NCBI GenBank assembly: GCA_965225085.1
Contig: CBDDBE010000003.1
Location: 67,023-120,930, forward strand
Direction: 5' to 3'
Length of the DNA stretch: 53,908 bases
Source of the DNA: an uncultured Candidatus Saccharibacteria bacterium
Lineage (GTDB): Bacteria; Patescibacteriota; Saccharimonadia; Saccharimonadales; EFPC-124
Part shown: piece by piece, positions 13,166 to 47,702 of the stretch
How positions within the stretch are numbered: the stretch's first letter is position 1
How the letters are laid out: each line of letters begins with the position of its first letter
Notes under the pieces: model-generated
What the model was told of the DNA's origin: nothing
The model's input: the letters and a program-made list of their open reading frames with translations, nothing else
Database searches by the model: none
Translations under genes and position numbers: made by a program

Positions 13166-14305
13166 ATGCAGGATCTCAACCTCAAACAACTCGCACTATC
13201 ACTAAAGCAAATCGCCGAGGAAAAAAACCTCCCCGAAGAGACGGTCCACGAAATTATCGAGCAGGCTATCGCAGCGGCATTTCGTCGTGACTTTGGTGAC
13301 CGCGAGCAAGAAGTCCGCGCCGAGCTAAACGCCAAGACCGGTGATGTAACCGTGTACACAACCAAGGAAATCGTCGAGGAAGTCGGCGACGACGCCATAG
13401 AAATCAGCCTGGCTGACGCAAAAAAGCAAGACCCCAACGCTGAAATCGGCGGCGCTGTCGAGGAAACAAGCCATCCGACTACTTTTGGTCGTGTTGCGGC
13501 CCAAACTGCCAAGCAGGTTATCTTGCAAAAACTTCGCGAAGCCGAGCGCGAAGTCGTGATGGAAGAATACGAGGACAAGATCGGCACCGTCATCGTCGGT
13601 ACTATCCAACGCGTCGAGCCACGAGTGGTGCGGGTAGAGCTGGGCAAAGCCGTCGGTATCATCCCACAGTCAGAGCAGATTCCCGGCGAATATTACAGCA
13701 TCGGCTCACGAATGAAAGTCTACCTCAAGGACGTTGAGCGCGGTAACCGAGGCCCGCAGCTGATCCTTAGCCGCGCCAACGAACAATTCATCGAGCACCT
13801 GTTCCGCCAGGAAGTGCCCGAGATGGAAAACGGCGCTGTTGAGATCAAAGCCATTGCCCGAGAGGCAGGCAAGCGTACCAAGATCGCCGTGAACTCAACA
13901 GTACCCGGCGTCGACCCTGTCGGCACATTTGTCGGCGGCCATGGGACGCGTGTTCAGGCCGTCATGAATGAAATTGGCGATCAAGAAAAGATCGACATCA
14001 TCACGTTCAGCGACGACGCTACGCAGTTTATTACCAACGCCCTTAGCCCTGCCGACGTTAAGACCATCACTATCAACGAAGAAACCAAGCATGCTCGTGT
14101 CGAAGTAAACGACGACCAGCTGAGCATTGCTATCGGCCGTGGCGGTCAAAACGTGCGCCTGGCTTCGCGCCTCACCGGCTACGAGCTCGACATCGAGCCA
14201 GCACAGGGTAAAGCCGCCGCACCAGTCGCGCCAAAGCCCAAGAAAAACATCGAGGACTCGCTCCTGAATGCGATTGAGGAGACACAGGACGACAGCCAAG
14301 CCTAG
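13166..14305 (+). CDS. nusA: Transcription termination/antitermination factor NusA
   Basis: FGRVAAQTAKQVI, S1 domain, AREAG.RTKIAV, KH domains with LAIG.GGQNVRLA-type motif. Confidence 0.97.
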   Translation: MQDLNLKQLALSLKQIAEEKNLPEETVHEIIEQAIAAAFRRDFGDREQEVRAELNAKTGDVTVYTTKEIVEEVGDDAIEISLADAKKQDPNAEIGGAVEETSHPTTFGRVAAQTAKQVILQKLREAEREVVMEEYEDKIGTVIVGTIQRVEPRVVRVELGKAVGIIPQSEQIPGEYYSIGSRMKVYLKDVERGNRGPQLILSRANEQFIEHLFRQEVPEMENGAVEIKAIAREAGKRTKIAVNSTVPGVDPVGTFVGGHGTRVQAVMNEIGDQEKIDIITFSDDATQFITNALSPADVKTITINEETKHARVEVNDDQLSIAIGRGGQNVRLASRLTGYELDIEPAQGKAAAPVAPKPKKNIEDSLLNAIEETQDDSQA

Positions 14306-38683: not shown

Positions 38684-38742
38684 ATTGACCAGTTGTCCAA
38701 ATTGGGTATACTACATCTAGTCTGTTAGAAATGGAGGCGTTT

Positions 38743-39066
38743 ATGAAGACGCCAGGTGTAAAGTACCAACCAAGCACGCCGATCGACACGGCTAAGATCC
38801 TCGTGATCGAAGGCCTATCAGATACGGACGATCAATGGAGGCCTATCGAGAGTGCCTACCCCGAACTCGAAGGAAAGTCTGCTCGATTGGGCATACGTAC
38901 GGCGCGCACGGTGATTCACCCTCCGCGCGAAGGAACAGCGCGTGGGCTATGGCGCACTCTCGTGTTATACAGAAGGGGCGCCAAGATCGCCGAGCTAGCT
39001 TCTGGGGAGGTTATCGTGCGCAAGCCTGATGGCCCCGACGGCGTCATTGTCCACATCTATCGCTAG
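38743..39066 (+). CDS. Hypothetical protein (~107 aa)
   Basis: SD GGAGG before ATG 38743; TATACT upstream; hairpin TGAGGGCT/AGCCCTCA downstream. Confidence 0.55.
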   Translation: MKTPGVKYQPSTPIDTAKILVIEGLSDTDDQWRPIESAYPELEGKSARLGIRTARTVIHPPREGTARGLWRTLVLYRRGAKIAELASGEVIVRKPDGPDGVIVHIYR

Positions 39067-39281: not shown

Positions 39282-42200
39282 ATGAGTAAAAGCTCAGTGA
39301 CCCGCGCGACTCAAAGGCGGTTTTTTACCAAAGCTGACACCGCCGTCGAGTTGCCAAACCTAATTGCGCATCAGCTTGGCTCGTTCCGTGAGTTTGTGGA
39401 GACTGGTCTCGGCGAGATTTTTGCCGAGATTAATCCTATTGAGGACTACACGGGCCAAAAGCTGGAGCTACGTTTCAAGGATTATCACTTTGACGATCCT
39501 AAAATGACCGAGCAAGAAGCTCGCGAAAACAACATTAGTTTTGACGCGCCCCTCAAGGCTGTCGTTGAGCTCACCAACAAAGTTACTGGTGAGGTCAAAG
39601 AGCAAGAAATCTACCTCGGTGACTATCCATGGATGACCAACCGCGGTACTTTTGTTATTAATGGCGCAGAACGCGTCGTTGTGAACCAGCTTATTCGTTC
39701 GGCTGGTGTTTTCTTTACCGCTGATTCGAGCGGCGGCCGCAATCTCTACGGCGCCAAGCTCATCCCTGGACGTGGTGCATGGCTGGAGTTCGAGACTGCC
39801 AGCAACGGCGCGCTATATGTCAAGATCGACCGACGCCGCAAAATCCCCGTCACCACGCTGCTGCGCGCGCTTGCATATCCTACCAACCAAGCCATCAAGG
39901 ACCTATTCGCCGACGTCGATACTGGTGATATTCGCCACATCGACGCCACCCTCGACAAAGACCCTGCCAAGGGTACTAACGAAGCGCTTATCGAAGTCTA
40001 CCGCCGCCTGCGCCCGGGCGACCTAGCTACCGTCGATAACGCCCGTGAACTCGTGCAGCGCATGTTCTTTGACTTCAAGCGCTTTGACTTTAGTCGCGTT
40101 GGTCGCTACAAGCTCAACCAGCGCCTTGGCCTAGACGTCGCCAACACAACCGAAAACCGTGTCATGCGCATCGATGACCTCGTTGCTATCATCAAGGAAG
40201 TCATCCGCCTCAACAACACACAGGACGCCCCAGACGACATCGACGCCCTGAGCAACCGCCGCGTCAAGATGGTCGGCGAGTTGGTTCAGCGCCAGTTCCG
40301 TATCGGTCTGCTGCGCATGGAGCGCAACGCTCGTGACCGCATGAGCATGTCCGACATCGAGACAGTCACCCCTGGCCAGCTTATCAATGCTCGCCCTGTC
40401 GTGGCTGCCGTCCGAGAGTTCTTTGCCAGCTCGCAGCTGTCGCAATTCATGGACCAGACCAACCCACTTTCCGAACTCGCCCACAAACGCCGCCTCAGCT
40501 CGATGGGCCCGGGTGGTCTAAGTCGCGAACGCGCCGGCCTGGATGTTCGTGACGCACACGCGACTCACTATGGCCGCCTCTGTACGGTTGAGACTCCAGA
40601 AGGTGCCAACATCGGCCTTGTGCTCAACATGGCTACCTATGCCAAGGTGAACGAATACGGCTTCCTGGAGACTCCTTATCGCCGCGTTGTTGACGGCAAA
40701 GTCACCGACGAAGTCATATACATGGACGCCGCCGAAGAAGCTCTCGAGGTTATTGCCGAATCCGGTAACAAAGTCGACGAGAATGGCAAATTTGTCAGCG
40801 ACCGCGTATCAGCCCGCATCAACCTGAAGCCAGGTGAAGTAGACGCCAGCGAAATAACATTCGTGGATGCTGCCAAGAAGCAGATCCTTGGTTCGACTGC
40901 ATCACTCATTCCATTTGTCGAGAAAAACCGTGTTGACCGCTCACTGACTGGCTCGAACATGCAGAAGCAAGCCGTGCCACTTATCAAGCCAAACTCACCA
41001 ATCGTGGGCACCGGCATGGAAGCAGTCATCGCTCGCAACTCAGGCCAGCTGATCGTCGCCGAAGGCGATGGTGAAGTCGTAAAAGCCGACGGTAGCGAAG
41101 TGCAAGTTCAGTACAAGGACGGCGTCAAAAGCTACGTCCCAATGCATTTCCAGCGTAGCAACGACGGCGAAAGCATCAACCAAACCGTCGTAGTCAACCG
41201 TGGCGATAAGGTCAAGAAAGACGACATCCTGATTGAAGGCATGAGCATGCGCGATGGCGAACTGGCTATCGGACGCGACCTCATCGTGGCCTACATGCCT
41301 TGGGGCGGCTACAACATGGACGACGCCATCATCCTCAGCGATCGCTTAGTAAAGGAAGACGACCTCACCAGCATCCACATCACCGACTACATGGTTGAAG
41401 TCCGCGAAACCAAGCTTGGCCCAGAAATCGTTACCCGAGACATTCCAAACGTCAGCGAAGAAAGCCTGCGTCACCTCGACGAGAACGGCATTGTCCGTAT
41501 CGGCGCTGAGGTTCACGCTGGTGATATTCTAGTCGGCAAGATCACGCCAAAGGGCGAGCAAGAGCTCTCAAGCGAAGAGCGCCTGCTACGCGCTATCTTT
41601 GGCGAAAAGGCTAAAGACGTTCGCGATACATCGCAGCGCATGAGTAATGGCAAACACGGCAAGATTGTCGGCGTCAAAGTCTTCAGCCGCGAAAACGGCC
41701 ACGAGCTTAAAGCTGGTGTTCTGATGCAAATCCAGATCTTTGTCGCCCAAATGCGCAAAATCAGCGTCGGCGACAAACTAGCTGGACGCCACGGTAACAA
41801 GGGCGTTGTCGCTCGTATTCTGCCGATCGCAGACATGCCATTCATGGCCGACGGTACCCCAATCGACGTCATCCTCAACCCGCTCGGCGTGCCTTCACGC
41901 ATGAACCTGGGACAGTTGTTCGAAGTTCACCTGGGTATGGCCGCGCGCGCACTTGGCTACAAGGTTGCAACGCCTCCATTCAACGGTGTGCCTATCGAGA
42001 CAATCGTTGACGAGCTGAAGAAAGCTGGCTTCCCAGAAGACGGCAAGGTGCAGCTGTTCGACGGTCGCACGGGTGACGCCTTCCAGGAGTTAACCGCTGT
42101 TGGCAACATGTACATGATTAAGCTGCACCACATGGTTGCAGACAAAATTCACGCACGTAGCATCGGTCCATACACTATGGTTACCCAGCAGCCCCTCGGT

Positions 42201-42680
42201 GGCAAGGCTCAAAACGGTGGTCAGCGCTTTGGCGAGATGGAGGTATGGGCACTGGAAGCATATGGCGCAAGCAGCACGCTTCAGGAAATGCTCACCATCA
42301 AGTCAGACGACGTCTACGGCCGGGCAAAAGCATACGAATCAATCATTAAGAAAGAACCGATCACTGGTCCAAAAGTTCCCGAGTCATTCAACGTGCTTGT
42401 CAAGGAGCTTCAGGGTCTGGGCCTTCGCGTCGACCTGATCCAGCAAGAGACCAGCGGCGATGCCGAAGATGTCCTGGACAGCGCCGTTGCCGACGAAGCC
42501 GCACACCCAGTCGAGCTCATTGCTGACGACGTCAAGCCGCTCGACGTAGCTGCAGCCGACGAAGTAGATGAATTTGGCGATCTCGATCTGGGCGACGGCA
42601 TGTCTGTCCGCACCAGTGATGATGACGAAGAAATTGTCGCAGTTAGCGACGACAATGACGACGAGAAGGAGGCTCTCTAA
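39282..42680 (+). CDS. rpoB: RNA polymerase beta subunit
   Basis: GTFVING.ERVVVNQL, SQLSQFMDQTNPL, TPEGANIGL, GDKLAGRHGNKG, GGQRFGEME. Confidence 0.99.
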   Translation: MSKSSVTRATQRRFFTKADTAVELPNLIAHQLGSFREFVETGLGEIFAEINPIEDYTGQKLELRFKDYHFDDPKMTEQEARENNISFDAPLKAVVELTNKVTGEVKEQEIYLGDYPWMTNRGTFVINGAERVVVNQLIRSAGVFFTADSSGGRNLYGAKLIPGRGAWLEFETASNGALYVKIDRRRKIPVTTLLRALAYPTNQAIKDLFADVDTGDIRHIDATLDKDPAKGTNEALIEVYRRLRPGDLATVDNARELVQRMFFDFKRFDFSRVGRYKLNQRLGLDVANTTENRVMRIDDLVAIIKEVIRLNNTQDAPDDIDALSNRRVKMVGELVQRQFRIGLLRMERNARDRMSMSDIETVTPGQLINARPVVAAVREFFASSQLSQFMDQTNPLSELAHKRRLSSMGPGGLSRERAGLDVRDAHATHYGRLCTVETPEGANIGLVLNMATYAKVNEYGFLETPYRRVVDGKVTDEVIYMDAAEEALEVIAESGNKVDENGKFVSDRVSARINLKPGEVDASEITFVDAAKKQILGSTASLIPFVEKNRVDRSLTGSNMQKQAVPLIKPNSPIVGTGMEAVIARNSGQLIVAEGDGEVVKADGSEVQVQYKDGVKSYVPMHFQRSNDGESINQTVVVNRGDKVKKDDILIEGMSMRDGELAIGRDLIVAYMPWGGYNMDDAIILSDRLVKEDDLTSIHITDYMVEVRETKLGPEIVTRDIPNVSEESLRHLDENGIVRIGAEVHAGDILVGKITPKGEQELSSEERLLRAIFGEKAKDVRDTSQRMSNGKHGKIVGVKVFSRENGHELKAGVLMQIQIFVAQMRKISVGDKLAGRHGNKGVVARILPIADMPFMADGTPIDVILNPLGVPSRMNLGQLFEVHLGMAARALGYKVATPPFNGVPIETIVDELKKAGFPEDGKVQLFDGRTGDAFQELTAVGNMYMIKLHHMVADKIHARSIGPYTMVTQQPLGGKAQNGGQRFGEMEVWALEAYGASSTLQEMLTIKSDDVYGRAKAYESIIKKEPITGPKVPESFNVLVKELQGLGLRVDLIQQETSGDAEDVLDSAVADEAAHPVELIADDVKPLDVAAADEVDEFGDLDLGDGMSVRTSDDDEEIVAVSDDNDDEKEAL

Positions 42681-45600
42681 TGCCACGTATTGGAATGACT
42701 ACAAGTATTTCCGACTTTGACGCCGTCCGCCTGGCCGTTGCGTCTGCCGAGGATATCCTCAACTGGTCACACGGCGAGGTTACCAAGCCCGAGACCATTA
42801 ACTACCGTACCCAAAAGCCAGAACGCGACGGTCTGTTCTGTGAGCGCATCTTTGGCCCAGTCAAGGATATCAACATCCATGACGCCAAATACAAAGGCGT
42901 TCGCTCACGCGAAGCTGCCGTCGACAAAAACGGCGAAATTGTTACCCGAAGCATCGTCCGTCGCGAGCGAATGGGGCACATTAGCCTTGCCGCTCCGGTC
43001 GCACACATTTGGTTCATGCGCGGCACGCCAAGCGCCATGAGCCTACTGCTGGGCGTAACCGTTCGCAACCTTGAGCGTGTTGCATACTTTGCGAGCTACA
43101 TCATCAAGTCTGTCGACGTCGAAAAACGCGATCAAACGCTGGCCGACATCGAAGCCGAGACCGAAGCTGCAAAAATCGCCATCAAGACTCGCTACGAGAA
43201 AGATGCTGAAGTTGAAGGCGCCGATCTGAAGCAGCTAGCCGCACAGCAAAGCAAAGAGCTCGAAGACCTCACCGAAGAGCACGCCCGCAAGAAAGTTCAA
43301 CTGGAAGGCCTTGAGAAATCTCGCCTGATTAGCGAAGTTGAGTACCGCGGGCTCCCCGACGAATACCGAGCTTTGGTTACCATCGGCATGGGTGGCACGG
43401 CTCTGCGTGAGCTTTTGGACGAGATCGACCTCGACAAACTGATCGAAGAGCTTACGACCGAAGCCGAGAGCGCAAAGGGTCAACGCAAGAAGAAGATCAT
43501 GAAGCGCCTGAAGGTCCTCGAGGGTATGCAGCGGGCCGGTATCAAGCCGAACAGCATGTGCCTGACTGTCCTGCCTGTCATTCCTCCAGATCTGCGACCA
43601 ATGGTTCAACTGACTGGTGGCCGTTTTGCCACAAGCGACCTGAACGACCTCTATCGCCGCGTCATTAACCGCAACAACCGTCTGAAGAAACTGATCGACC
43701 TCAACGCCCCCGAAGTCATCCGCCGCAACGAGCAGCGCATGCTTCAGGAAGCCGTTGATGCCCTGATCGACAACTCGGCTGCCCGTTCTGGTCGCGCCGT
43801 TAGCGCTACAGGTGGTCGACGCCGCCTGAAGAGCCTCAGCGACATGCTGAAAGGTAAGCAAGGTCGTTTCCGCCAGAACCTCCTCGGTAAGCGTGTTGAC
43901 TACTCCGGCCGTTCTGTAATCGTTGCTGGTCCTGAGCTGAAGATTCACCAATGTGGCCTTCCGAAGCTCATGGCGCTTGAGCTGTTCAAACCATTCGTCA
44001 TTGCTCACTTGCTCGAGCAAGAGTTCGCGCACAACATCAAGAGCGCGACACGTCTGATCGAATCCAACGCCAGCGAAGTCTGGGACGCCCTGGACGAGAT
44101 CATCAAGGACAAGTACGTGCTGCTGAACCGCGCACCATCGTTACACCGCCTGTCTATCCAGGCCTTCCAGCCAAAGCTGATCGAAGGTAAGGCAATCCAG
44201 CTACATCCGCTCGTCGCCAAGGGTTTCAACGCCGACTTTGACGGTGACCAGATGGCCGTGCACCTACCGCTGAGCGACGACGCCCAGAAGGAAGCTCGCG
44301 AGTTGATGAGCGCCACTAGCAACCTACTAAAGCCTGCCGACGGTTCGCCAATCCTGAACATCAGCCAGGACATCGTCCTTGGTTCCTACTACCTGACGTA
44401 CGACAAGCCAAGCGCACAGCTTCCCGAGCCACGACGATTTAGCAGCGTTTCAGAGGCAATTTTCGCCTTCGACGGCGGGCTCATCAAGCTTCAGACGCCT
44501 ATTACCGTCCCCGTAAAGGGCCAAACCCGTACAACCACCCTTGGCCGCGTCTACTTCAACGAAGTTCTGCCAGCTGACCTCGACTACGTCGAAGACGTCA
44601 TGGGCAAAAAGCGCCTCAACAAGGTGCTAGCCACTATCTTCAACACCTATGGGCAAGAGAAGACAGCCGAAGTTGCCGACGCTATCAAGGACCTCGCGCT
44701 CGAGTATGCAACCATCGCTGCCGTTTCGACAGGTATGACCGACTACTTCGAAGTTGAAGGCCTGGACGTAGTCATTGGCGAAGGTGACGAGCGCGCCGCC
44801 AAAATCTCCGAGCAGTACGAGCACGGCCTCATCACTGAGGACGAACGCTACAGCCTGACCGTTGCCACCTGGCGTGGCGTGGACAAGAAAGTACTCGAGA
44901 TTCTTCAGGGCCGCCTGAAAGAAGAAGACACCTCTGTTGCTGTGATGGTTGACTCTGGTGCCCGTGGTGACATCAGCAACATCAAGCTCGCAACAGCGAT
45001 GATCGGTGTGATGGTTGACGCAACCGGTAAAGAAATCGAGCTGCCTATCCGCTCAAGCTACAAAAAAGGTCTTTCACCGCTGGAAGCCTTCGTGGCCACC
45101 CGTGGTACTCGTAAGGGTCTGATCGACACCGCGCTAAAGACCGCCGACTCGGGCTATCTAACACGCCGACTCGTCGATGTCAGCCAGGATGTCTTTACCG
45201 TCACCGAACCAGCCGAAGACAATGGCTTTGCTATCTACCGTAGCGAATCAGACCAGACCATGATTCCGTTTGGCGATCGTCTGTTTGGTCGCTATGCTGC
45301 CGAGGCTATCAAGAGCCACGTCAAGCCAGGTGAGCTCATCACTCGTGAGATCGCAGACGCTATCGATGCCGACATCAGCATCGAGAACGCCAAGATCATG
45401 AGTGTTCTGAGCGCAACCAACCTTCGTGGCATCCCACGCAAGAGCTATGGCATCGACATGGCTACCGGCAAGCTTATCGCTTCGTACGAGCCAGTCGGCG
45501 TCATCGCTGCGCAATCAGTGGGTGAGCCTGGTACGCAGTTGACGCTGAACACCTTCCACGCCGGTGGTGTGGCTGGTGATGACATCACCCAGGGTCTGCC

Positions 45601-46489
45601 ACGTGTCGACGAGCTCTTTGAAGCACGCACACCAAAGGGCCAGGCATTCCTGAGTGAAATCGGTGGCGACGTCCAAGTTTGGGAAAGTGGCGAACACTAC
45701 GTCGTTCAGGTTACTCCGCCAAAGGGCAAGACCAAGAAATTGGCCCTCGACGGCCGCATCGTCCGCGTTAAAAGCGGCACCGAAGTGCTGGCCGGCGACG
45801 TCCTCGCAAGTGATAAGAAGGAAGATCGTCCGCTCATTGCACCATTTGACGGGACTGTCGAAGTTGCCGAGGATCAGATCGTCATTGCATCTGCTCAGCA
45901 CGCTCCAGCTCGCTACGAAGTTCCAGGCTTCAAGCAGTTGACCGTAGCTGACGGCGATCAGATCGAGGCAGGTGATCGCCTGACCTCTGGTTCGATCAAC
46001 CTACACGACCTGATGCGCCTGAAGGGCATCGAAGCCACTCAGCGCTACATCATCAACGAAGTACTGCGCATCTACGCAGCCCAGGGTCAGAACATTGCTG
46101 ACAAGCACCTGGAGATCATCGTTCGACAGATGTTCAGCCGTGTAACGATCGAGGACCCAGGTGATAGCCTGTTTGTAACTGGCGACATCGTCAGCAAGGC
46201 AGCAGTCGTCGAGACTAACCGTCAGCTAACCGAGGAAGGCAAGGCGCCATCAGAGTTCACACAGTTGCTGCTTGGTATCACCAAGGTGTCAATCTGGTCA
46301 GACTCGTTCCTGTCGGCCGCATCGTTCCAAGACACCACTCGCGTGCTTATCAATGCCGCAACAAGTGGTCGTGTAGACAACCTCTACGGCCTGAAAGAGA
46401 ACGTGATTATCGGTCGCAAGATCCCAGTTGGTACTGGTATCCAGCGTGATGCAGCCGAAATCGCAGCCGACGCACTGGTAGAAGCCTAA
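42680..46489 (+). CDS. rpoC: RNA polymerase beta' subunit (both Zn sites lack Cys)
   Basis: KPETINYRT, GRFRQNLLGKRVDYSGR, NADFDGD, KTADSGYLTRRL, SAASFQ; TAATG coupling to rpoB. Confidence 0.99.
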   Translation: MPRIGMTTSISDFDAVRLAVASAEDILNWSHGEVTKPETINYRTQKPERDGLFCERIFGPVKDINIHDAKYKGVRSREAAVDKNGEIVTRSIVRRERMGHISLAAPVAHIWFMRGTPSAMSLLLGVTVRNLERVAYFASYIIKSVDVEKRDQTLADIEAETEAAKIAIKTRYEKDAEVEGADLKQLAAQQSKELEDLTEEHARKKVQLEGLEKSRLISEVEYRGLPDEYRALVTIGMGGTALRELLDEIDLDKLIEELTTEAESAKGQRKKKIMKRLKVLEGMQRAGIKPNSMCLTVLPVIPPDLRPMVQLTGGRFATSDLNDLYRRVINRNNRLKKLIDLNAPEVIRRNEQRMLQEAVDALIDNSAARSGRAVSATGGRRRLKSLSDMLKGKQGRFRQNLLGKRVDYSGRSVIVAGPELKIHQCGLPKLMALELFKPFVIAHLLEQEFAHNIKSATRLIESNASEVWDALDEIIKDKYVLLNRAPSLHRLSIQAFQPKLIEGKAIQLHPLVAKGFNADFDGDQMAVHLPLSDDAQKEARELMSATSNLLKPADGSPILNISQDIVLGSYYLTYDKPSAQLPEPRRFSSVSEAIFAFDGGLIKLQTPITVPVKGQTRTTTLGRVYFNEVLPADLDYVEDVMGKKRLNKVLATIFNTYGQEKTAEVADAIKDLALEYATIAAVSTGMTDYFEVEGLDVVIGEGDERAAKISEQYEHGLITEDERYSLTVATWRGVDKKVLEILQGRLKEEDTSVAVMVDSGARGDISNIKLATAMIGVMVDATGKEIELPIRSSYKKGLSPLEAFVATRGTRKGLIDTALKTADSGYLTRRLVDVSQDVFTVTEPAEDNGFAIYRSESDQTMIPFGDRLFGRYAAEAIKSHVKPGELITREIADAIDADISIENAKIMSVLSATNLRGIPRKSYGIDMATGKLIASYEPVGVIAAQSVGEPGTQLTLNTFHAGGVAGDDITQGLPRVDELFEARTPKGQAFLSEIGGDVQVWESGEHYVVQVTPPKGKTKKLALDGRIVRVKSGTEVLAGDVLASDKKEDRPLIAPFDGTVEVAEDQIVIASAQHAPARYEVPGFKQLTVADGDQIEAGDRLTSGSINLHDLMRLKGIEATQRYIINEVLRIYAAQGQNIADKHLEIIVRQMFSRVTIEDPGDSLFVTGDIVSKAAVVETNRQLTEEGKAPSEFTQLLLGITKVSIWSDSFLSAASFQDTTRVLINAATSGRVDNLYGLKENVIIGRKIPVGTGIQRDAAEIAADALVEA

Positions 46490-46628: not shown

Positions 46629-47702
46629 ATGAATCCCGACCAACAAGATACGCCGAACCCACAACCTCAAGAAATGCCAGCGGCCACTCCCACGCCAGCA
46701 CCAATTCTAAAAAGCGGTAAAAAACTTAGCAAAAACGTAATCATTGGCGCCTTAGCTGGTGCTATTGTACTTGCGGGCGCTATTAGCTATGGAGTATACG
46801 CTTACATCAGCAACTCCCCGGACAACTTACTGCTGTCCGCCGTGGACAATCTAAAAGCCAAAAAGTCATTCGGCGGCACTTTTAAAATTGTGAACGGCAC
46901 CGAACAGAACGGCGTCACCTTCAGTGGCGATGTTGCGGCAGCGGCTGATCCATCCAACAATAAAAATGGCGAGGTCATCCTAGGCCTCGGCACTGGCAAC
47001 AAAAGAGTAGCAATCAACGCGCTATCGCTCGCAGGTACACTGTATCTAAAAGCAACCAACACCGAAAATCTAGGCCCGCTCCTGTCGTCCTTTAGCGGCG
47101 GTAGTGAGTCCCTCAGCTCACCCGAGTTTGCTAGTGCGCTAAAAGTATTGAACAATCAGTGGTTTGAGATCCAGCAATCTGATGTAAAATCTCTGGCACA
47201 AAATACCGGCAGCGACAACTTCTCAGGCGCCATATCTTCGGATGATCTCAAGAGAGTCCTGGACATTTACCACCAACATCCCTTCATTAAGTCCGACAAA
47301 ATATACAATGACGAGGTCGTCGACGGCTCTAACTCAGCACATTTTAGCCTCAAGATTGATGCCAAAGAGCAAGTCGCGTTCCTGCAGGCCGTCAAAAATG
47401 CCAACCTCAGTACCATCAAAGTCACAGACGACGACATCAATAGGATCAAGACTGACCCAGGGACTAACACCGATAGCATCGTAGAGATTTGGATTGCACG
47501 CAGTTCACGCCAGCTCAAGCAGTTGAAGGTAACCAACACCAAGAAAGGCGACGAATCAGCTCTGACACTGACGCTCGTCGATAGCAGGCCCACATTTGAC
47601 AAGTTCGAGAAACCAGCAAGCAGCAAGCCGATTTCCGAGCTTTTGACATCGTTGCTCGGACCATCCATCACTGCTAACGAGCTCAATACCACCGTCCAGT
47701 AA
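46629..47702 (+). CDS. Single-TM surface protein, possibly LppX/LprA (LolA-like) fold
   Basis: Pro-rich N-terminus, TM, then beta-rich domain with GTLYLK ... NQWFEI. Confidence 0.6.
   Translation: MNPDQQDTPNPQPQEMPAATPTPAPILKSGKKLSKNVIIGALAGAIVLAGAISYGVYAYISNSPDNLLLSAVDNLKAKKSFGGTFKIVNGTEQNGVTFSGDVAAAADPSNNKNGEVILGLGTGNKRVAINALSLAGTLYLKATNTENLGPLLSSFSGGSESLSSPEFASALKVLNNQWFEIQQSDVKSLAQNTGSDNFSGAISSDDLKRVLDIYHQHPFIKSDKIYNDEVVDGSNSAHFSLKIDAKEQVAFLQAVKNANLSTIKVTDDDINRIKTDPGTNTDSIVEIWIARSSRQLKQLKVTNTKKGDESALTLTLVDSRPTFDKFEKPASSKPISELLTSLLGPSITANELNTTVQ

Follow-up and report, generated by a model that had tools for sequence, protein, structure and literature searches.

To our knowledge, structural zinc in the largest subunit has been treated as a constant of multisubunit RNA polymerases. 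The canonical bacterial form of this subunit, beta' (gene rpoC), carries two Zn(Cys)4 sites, the first of them in the zinc-binding domain (ZBD). In the ZBD of E. coli, K74 and K87 contact upstream DNA, a mutant with all four cysteines changed to serine is defective, and a deletion of the domain was unobtainable (bioRxiv 10.1101/2020.01.02.893370). Here we analyse the rpoC gene in a stretch of 53,908 nucleotides (the window) from an uncultured Candidatus Saccharibacteria bacterium of the order Saccharimonadales (assembly GCA_965225085.1, contig CBDDBE010000003.1, positions 67,023 to 120,930 of the forward strand). Its product belongs to the same family as canonical beta', with the same domain order, length and catalytic motif, a colinear ZBD, and K74, K76, R81 and K87 (E. 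coli numbering) retained. However, it has none of the eight zinc-binding cysteines, 13 positions of the ZBD are fixed to new residues throughout the order, and its zinc content is presumably zero. In open-access papers and preprints, we found no account of any bacterial beta', from Saccharibacteria or from other groups, that lacks its zinc cysteines.

Replacement of structural zinc sites has been described in other proteins of the nucleic-acid machinery. The Cys-less (C-) forms of the ribosomal proteins L31, L33, L36 and S14, known from Zur-regulated zinc sparing in many bacteria, show the same kind of change, in that a Cys4 or Cys3His ribbon has become a working version without ligands. Elsewhere, these C- proteins are stress-induced paralogues that exist beside a Cys-bearing (C+) copy, whereas in the genome of the window they are the only copies found: L31, L33, L36, S14 and rpoC gave one match each, and no C+/C- pair was seen. 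A Fur-family gene is present. Unlike Zur-type sparing, the change here also reaches RNA polymerase, primase and RecR, and no precedent for a zinc-sparing loss in any of these three was found in open-access papers and preprints. DksA2, a zinc-independent paralogue of the Cys4 protein DksA in Zur regulons, uses a disulfide bridge (review PMC11672702). It resembles the present case as a protein of the transcription machinery in which a structural zinc site has been replaced while fold and function were kept; however, DksA2 occurs alongside DksA and acts as an accessory factor, whereas here a core catalytic subunit has been changed constitutively and holds no cysteine at the ligand positions. The C-terminal repeats of type IA topoisomerases occur in Cys4 (Topo_C_ZnRpt) and in Cys-free, metal-free (Topo_C_Rpt) nucleic-acid-binding versions of similar fold (PMC9369019). 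Repeats of either type have been known for a long time and are found widely; in the beta' ZBD, by contrast, every sequence examined from outside the Saccharimonadales was Cys4 except one, which had a single Cys-to-Ser change.

The sequence-only reading of the window had proposed that the ZBD of RpoC lacks all four cysteines and has Ile, Asp, Val and Asn in their place. This proved correct when the codons were read in an ungapped register on which HMMER and MAFFT agreed. The rpoC gene occupies window positions 42680..46489 on the + strand and encodes 1269 aa (open reading frame (ORF) list, translation, Pfam and phmmer); positions 42851-42985 (+) translate exactly to FGPVKDINIHDAKYKGVRSREAAVDKNGEIVTRSIVRRERMGHIS. 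The Cys-free, remodelled ZBD, FGPVKDINIHDAKYKGVRSREAAVDKNGEIVT, is encoded at 42851..42946 (+) and comprises RpoC residues 58-89, which align without gaps to residues 62-93 of the E. coli protein. We extracted rpoC from the sampled genomes and read the eight Cys positions in one alignment; the sample of the order comprised 50 genomes with 31 family labels, including one sequence (L004) from an unpublished genome (G002), on which no claim rests; G262 is unpublished as well. On the + strand of the window, E. coli C70 corresponds to I66 (ATC, 42875-42877; across the order Pro in 42 genomes, Ile in 7 and Ser in 1), C72 to D68 (GAC, 42881-42883; Asp in 48, Glu in 2), C85 to V81 (GTC, 42920-42922; Val in 46, Ile in 3, Arg in 1), and C88 to N84 (AAC, 42929-42931; Asn in 44, Lys in 4, Arg in 1, Glu in 1). 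The whole protein contains only three cysteines in 1269 residues (54, 294 and 425), none of them near either zinc site.

Misregistration of the alignment had been named as one way in which the proposal might fail. The HMMER alignment to a Clostridial beta' covers query residues 9-142 with no gaps and 65 identical flanking residues, and MAFFT with RpoC of E. coli K-12 gave the same register; as no gap falls within the ZBD, the register is firmly established. The domain has the same position and length as in canonical beta' and is colinear with it, whereas the four-Cys CxC...CxxC ligand set is absent. Recoding or a sequencing slip is implausible because in each of the four replacement codons two bases would have to change to give Cys.

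The loss extends through the entire order. All 50 genomes of Saccharimonadales have none of the four cysteines of the first site, whereas all four are present in both sites in 18/18 genomes from other orders of the class and in 40/40 genomes from other classes of the phylum. With the same state in 50/50 genomes of the order and in 0/58 elsewhere in the phylum, chance is not an issue. RpoC contains on average 5.1 cysteines in the order, compared with 12.2 in the class's remaining orders and 13.8 in other classes of the phylum. The loss of the cysteines is thus lineage-wide, as had been suggested as a possibility, but the lineage is the Saccharimonadales and not the Patescibacteria as a whole. 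Searches beyond the sampled genomes gave the same picture. The ZBD cysteines were gone in 120 of 120 metagenomic homologues recovered from a search of 5.8 billion proteins. A search of 1.8 billion cluster representatives returned 13 Cys-less sequences among the best 150, all with the signature KDINP...VDKxG and all placed within the clade, and the other 137, which lie outside the clade, all keep Cys4. A scan of one genome per species yielded 80 loci, five of them Cys-less and all five labelled Saccharibacteria or Patescibacteria; among the remaining 75, drawn from many phyla, 74 are Cys4 and one has a single Cys-to-Ser change. That the Cys4 ribbon is otherwise near-universal, as the sequence-only reading had assumed, is consistent with these counts. 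That exception is a Paceibacterota metagenome-assembled genome (L266, DATJQA010000074.1), which lies outside the order and has a ZBD of the type C-S-C-C, in which Cys72 is replaced by Ser; three cysteines might suffice for a site there, or a similar path might have been entered at an early stage.

In a maximum-likelihood tree the order forms one clade (support of 100 in the Shimodaira-Hasegawa-like approximate likelihood ratio test, SH-aLRT) on a long stem of 0.2 changes per site, and its sister group is fully Cys-bearing. Among the Cys-less database members, the divergent P0130, P0132 and P0133 likewise branch within the order and have neither zinc site. No intermediate with one site lost and the other intact was seen among the 50 genomes of the order, and no independent Cys-less ZBD was found outside it in our samples of 58 Patescibacteria, 75 cross-phylum loci and 137 cluster representatives. 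One loss, on the branch leading to this monophyletic order, explains all of these data.

The observation made from the sequence alone captured half of the change in beta', as the second zinc site is also gone. In the window RpoC, the positions of E. coli C814, C888, C895 and C898 are occupied by P844/A845, A912, P919 and S922. C814 falls on P844 in the HMMER alignment and on A845 in the MAFFT alignment, neither of which is Cys (P844-A845, 45209..45214, +), and both alignments place A912, P919 and S922 at C888, C895 and C898, within SVLSATNLRGIPRKSYG (45413..45445, +). Across the order (n=50), no cysteine is left at this site in 29 genomes, one in 16 and two in 5; positions 895 and 898 are never Cys, and the leftover cysteines are found at 814 and 888 in some families. 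C898S is the sole fixed change at the site, and the remaining positions are variable, a pattern that looks like the loss of a metal site followed by drift, as simple loss would give. Judging from this distribution, C895 and C898 were evidently lost on the stem branch of the order, and the cysteines at 814 and 888 appear to be disappearing piecemeal, with none left in the window.

The first site shows a different type of change. Comparing the order with all other Patescibacteria, we found 28 positions across the protein at which the two groups have different fixed residues (fixed meaning at least 80% within a group), and 13 of the 28 are located at E. coli positions 65-94 (binomial P ~4e-14 for 32 of ~1276 positions). 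Together with the cysteines, nine further ZBD positions changed and are fixed: T65V, W68I, E69N, Y71H, Y80S, K81R, G82E, V90E and R94K. Pairs of sequences from the order have a mean identity of 0.89 in the ZBD and 0.70 over the whole RpoC, the domain is free of insertions and deletions, and where its codons differ between the 50 genomes, the difference is synonymous in 82% of cases; R79, for example, is invariant though written with six codons. Basic residues that contact DNA or RNA in E. coli have been kept (K74, K76, K79/R, R81 and K87). Window K70, the counterpart of K74, is invariant across the order and the outgroups, and window K83, the counterpart of K87, is invariant among close relatives and conserved to at least 90% in the wider alignment. 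Since the fixed changes are concentrated in the ZBD, which has subsequently stayed more similar than the rest of beta', the domain was rebuilt rather than degraded, and it has been under strong purifying selection ever since.

Pfam Rpb1 domains 1-5 (PF04997, PF00623, PF04983, PF05000 and PF04998) are found in order in the window RpoC, all above cut-off, and phmmer against solved beta' chains gave E = 0. The genome (98% complete, 1.08 Mb) has one copy of rpoC. The catalytic motif NADFDGD is intact (RpoC residues 517-523; 44228..44248, +), and across 76 relatives (alignment A1) six of its seven residues are invariant, F520 not being among those listed. We regard it as probable that this is a working beta' whose zinc ribbon underwent one reconstruction, on the stem branch leading to the Saccharimonadales, that left its length unchanged and removed every cysteine; it most likely binds no metal there.

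Zinc sites have been lost from further proteins on the same branch. In DnaG primase, the C-H-C-C positions are occupied by S/S/D/S in 20/20 matched genomes of the order, whereas C-H-C-C is present in 3/3 sister-order genomes. The DnaG of the window genome (584 aa; G000:C6:36052-37803, equivalent to L112:1492-3243:+) contains no cysteine at all, and its CHC2 ligands have become S, S, D and S. Of the four cysteines of RecR, the first alone remains in 17/18 genomes of the order (one genome has a second Cys), whereas CxxC...CxxC was found in 11/11 sister-order genomes; in the window genome recR is located at G000:C4:30474-31061 (L113:1501-2088:-). Ribosomal protein L31 is Cys-free in 13/13 genomes of the order and Cys4 in 31/32 of the sister orders, L36 is Cys-free in 5/5 and Cys3His in 3/3, and S14 is a long Cys-poor form in 10/10 but a short Cys4 form in 7/7 genomes of the nearer sister families. 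The window genome encodes L36, L33, L31 and S14 as Cys-free single copies (G000:C9:8804-8911, C4:119428-119559, C2:39608-39841 and C9:13694-13852, respectively). L32 was not found in it with PF01783. On the other hand, Cys4 motifs (CxxC...CxxC) were kept in UvrA (two copies), DnaJ, Fur, PriA, NrdR, RadA and Fpg of the same genome, as well as in PilB, the prepilin peptidase and an IS1595 transposase, and Cys makes up 0.79% of the predicted proteome, which is not extreme. A genome-wide removal of cysteine or of Cys4 sites is ruled out by these figures, and because UvrA, DnaJ, PriA, NrdR and others keep their Cys4, the shedding of zinc sites was selective and not a general avoidance of cysteine.

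Taken to its full extent, the comparison would mean that RNA polymerase, ribosome, primase and RecR all came to lack structural zinc in one ancient adaptive episode on the stem, that this is the first cellular multisubunit RNA polymerase known without zinc, and that the ZBD is a ribbon turned into a metal-free nucleic-acid-binding fold. We put this forward tentatively, as a possibility somewhat short of probable.

Two main proposals for what drove the loss were compared. We favour, with reserve, the sparing of zinc in those parts of the nucleic-acid machinery that are abundant or essential. The large zinc pools of a bacterial cell are the ribosome and the polymerase, and the identity of the affected proteins would fit, as L31, L33, L36 and S14 are the classic zinc-sparing set. 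Several observations weigh against zinc economy or against the favoured reading as a whole. Sites disappeared from the low-abundance proteins DnaG and RecR but persisted in other Cys4 proteins, and the Cys content of the proteome given above is unremarkable. Zinc uptake genes do not separate the order from its sisters, ZnuA-type genes being present in 1/18 genomes of the order vs 4/43 sister genomes, and ZIP transporters in 12/18 vs 18/43. Furthermore, L31 is Cys-free in one sister-order genome (L237, G061, family f39), and a long Cys-poor S14 is found in three more distant families of the class (L217-L219; f33, f37 and f43), so that the loss of ribosomal zinc ribbons is not wholly confined to the Saccharimonadales.

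The second proposal holds that the change protected against thiol oxidation (by oxygen, peroxide, hypochlorite or electrophiles) during a move to oxic or host-associated niches and had nothing to do with saving zinc. It would account for the fact that Cys-based sites were hit specifically, including those of the low-abundance DnaG and RecR, where saving zinc matters little, and the genome encodes a Ni-superoxide dismutase (Ni-SOD). This enzyme is, however, not specific to the order: it was found in 8/18 genomes of the order and in 14/43 sisters, including 5/5 of the closest sister family, and is thus uninformative as a marker of an order-specific oxic shift. Many Zn-Cys4 proteins were retained, the redox-sensitive DnaJ among them, and the proteins affected include L31, L36, S14 and L33. 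We consider thiol protection the main alternative driver, less likely than zinc sparing but more likely than any of the rival readings discussed below. Loss of the termination factor Rho was also considered as a trigger. In the window genome, the best match to TIGR00767 scored 45 bits against a cut-off of 509 bits, that is, Rho was not found, and neither was it found in any of the 81 genomes of the class (the window genome and 80 others; completeness at least 80%), Cys-bearing sisters included. Because Rho was likewise not found in sisters that keep the cysteines, its absence cannot explain an order-specific change, and Rho loss was ruled out as the trigger. NusA is encoded in the window, at ~13193-14200.

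As to the state of the ZBD itself, it is most likely metal-free. No tetrahedral zinc site appears to be left, because position 70 (P/I) and V85 (E. coli numbering, as for the single ZBD residues named below) are aliphatic and the other two ligand positions are Asp and Asn. The aromatic residues W68, Y71 and Y80 have been lost, while I68, P70, V85, D72, E82 and E90 have been gained, and on these grounds we propose that a small hydrophobic core (I68, P/I70 and V85) stands in for zinc and would hold the two knuckles together, whereas the new acidic residues D72, E82 and E90, which lie beside conserved basic ones, may form polar or salt-bridge contacts. The retained basic tip suggests that contacts with nucleic acids were kept, and the rebuilt ZBD could thus continue in its usual jobs, namely the contact with upstream promoter DNA and the lining of the RNA exit channel. 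With both sites lost, the core enzyme would be one without structural zinc.

Structure models gave limited guidance. AlphaFold2 (AF2) applied to residues 1-1200 with 76 close homologues reached a mean predicted local distance difference test score (pLDDT) of 61.8, and even the invariant catalytic core scored <50, so that the score of the ZBD in this model is uninformative. A second AF2 model, of residues 1-431 with 94 diverse sequences, had a predicted template modelling score (pTM) of 0.74 and showed a hairpin (79-81 / 87-89) at the former CxxC knuckle with a pLDDT of only 51-64; taken as a whole, the N-terminal module resembles solved beta' chains (Z ~25). Two points weigh against the favoured reading: the ZBD reaches a pLDDT of only about 51-64 even in the better model, and a metal site of another kind might conceivably be formed by the conserved H71, D72 and D86.

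The latter possibility, in which His71, Asp72, Asp86 and Asn/Lys88 replace the thiolates, so that the coordination would have changed and the metal would have been kept, deserves consideration, because metal binding by adjacent His-Asp pairs is known in other protein families. H71 is new with respect to the sister orders (Tyr to His) and is His in 48/50 genomes, position 72 is Asp or Glu in 50/50, and D86 is Asp in 50/50. However, two of the four former ligand positions are aliphatic (P/I70 and V85), and H71 is replaced by Asn in 2/50 genomes (L131 and L129, including the earliest branch) and in the metagenomic proteins P0076 and P0125, and in P0132 positions 71 and 72 are occupied by F and S. 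The Cys-bearing sisters, too, have Asp at position 86, which is therefore not a new ligand, and residues that lie between the cysteines of a zinc-ribbon knuckle face away from the bound ion. Substitution of the thiolates by His and Asp ligands thus seems unlikely, and we give little credence to a metal retained in this manner.

The loss could also be read as decay: without Rho and phage antiterminators the ZBD would have lost its partners, constraint would have been relaxed, and the cysteines would have drifted away from a leftover domain. Rho was indeed not found in this genome or in any of the 81 genomes of the class, and the second site does look relaxed, with its variable positions and scattered leftover cysteines. 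Yet the 58 sister-order genomes of the sample likewise gave no Rho, and the 18 of them with rpoC read keep all their cysteines. Moreover, the ZBD has diverged far less than the protein around it, without indels and chiefly by synonymous codon changes, and its substitutions are a concentrated, fixed set and not a scatter. Decay of the ZBD, contradicted by this conservation, appears very improbable. An artefact (misaligned register, pseudogene, contamination or sequencing error) is scarcely credible, as no evidence supporting it was found, no gap interrupts the alignment and its flanks are identical, the reading frame of 1269 aa is unbroken and includes the catalytic motif, rpoC is single-copy and adjacent to rpoB, and the same state recurs in 50 independent genomes and 120 metagenomic proteins.

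A whole order in which both sites have been replaced would indicate that the metal of beta' is replaceable, with a natural sequence solution supplied. The rebuilt ZBD offers a test case for the metal-free stabilisation of a zinc ribbon and a lineage marker for the Saccharimonadales, which include human-associated, cultivable TM7 strains. Together with the losses in primase, RecR and the ribosome, it offers a concrete way to study how ultra-small epibiotic bacteria economise on metal or adapt to thiol stress, and it bears on anything that targets or depends on the ZBD, e.g., docking regulators and phage factors.

The rpoC gene lies directly downstream of rpoB, which encodes the beta subunit (39282..42680, +; 1132 aa; Pfam Rpb2 domains 1, 2, 3, 45, 6 and 7). 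The TAA stop of rpoB and the ATG of rpoC share one base (TAATG, window 42678-42682), an overlap that suggests translational coupling of beta and beta'. The ORFs on either side of rpoBC (38731-39066, 111 aa, and 46629-47702, 357 aa) have no Pfam match at E <= 1e-5, and further upstream the genes for trigger factor and ClpP are found, not the usual L10-L7/L12 pair. After the ZBD, RpoC contains a long coiled-coil insertion (residues ~146-235, window 43115-43384) that is predicted with a pLDDT >95. The best structural matches of the N-terminal module (Z ~25) are the actinobacterial beta' chains of Mycobacterium and Streptomyces, which have a lineage insertion at the same place. In the alignment, the coiled-coil insertion is present in the sister orders too and is therefore not linked to the loss of zinc.

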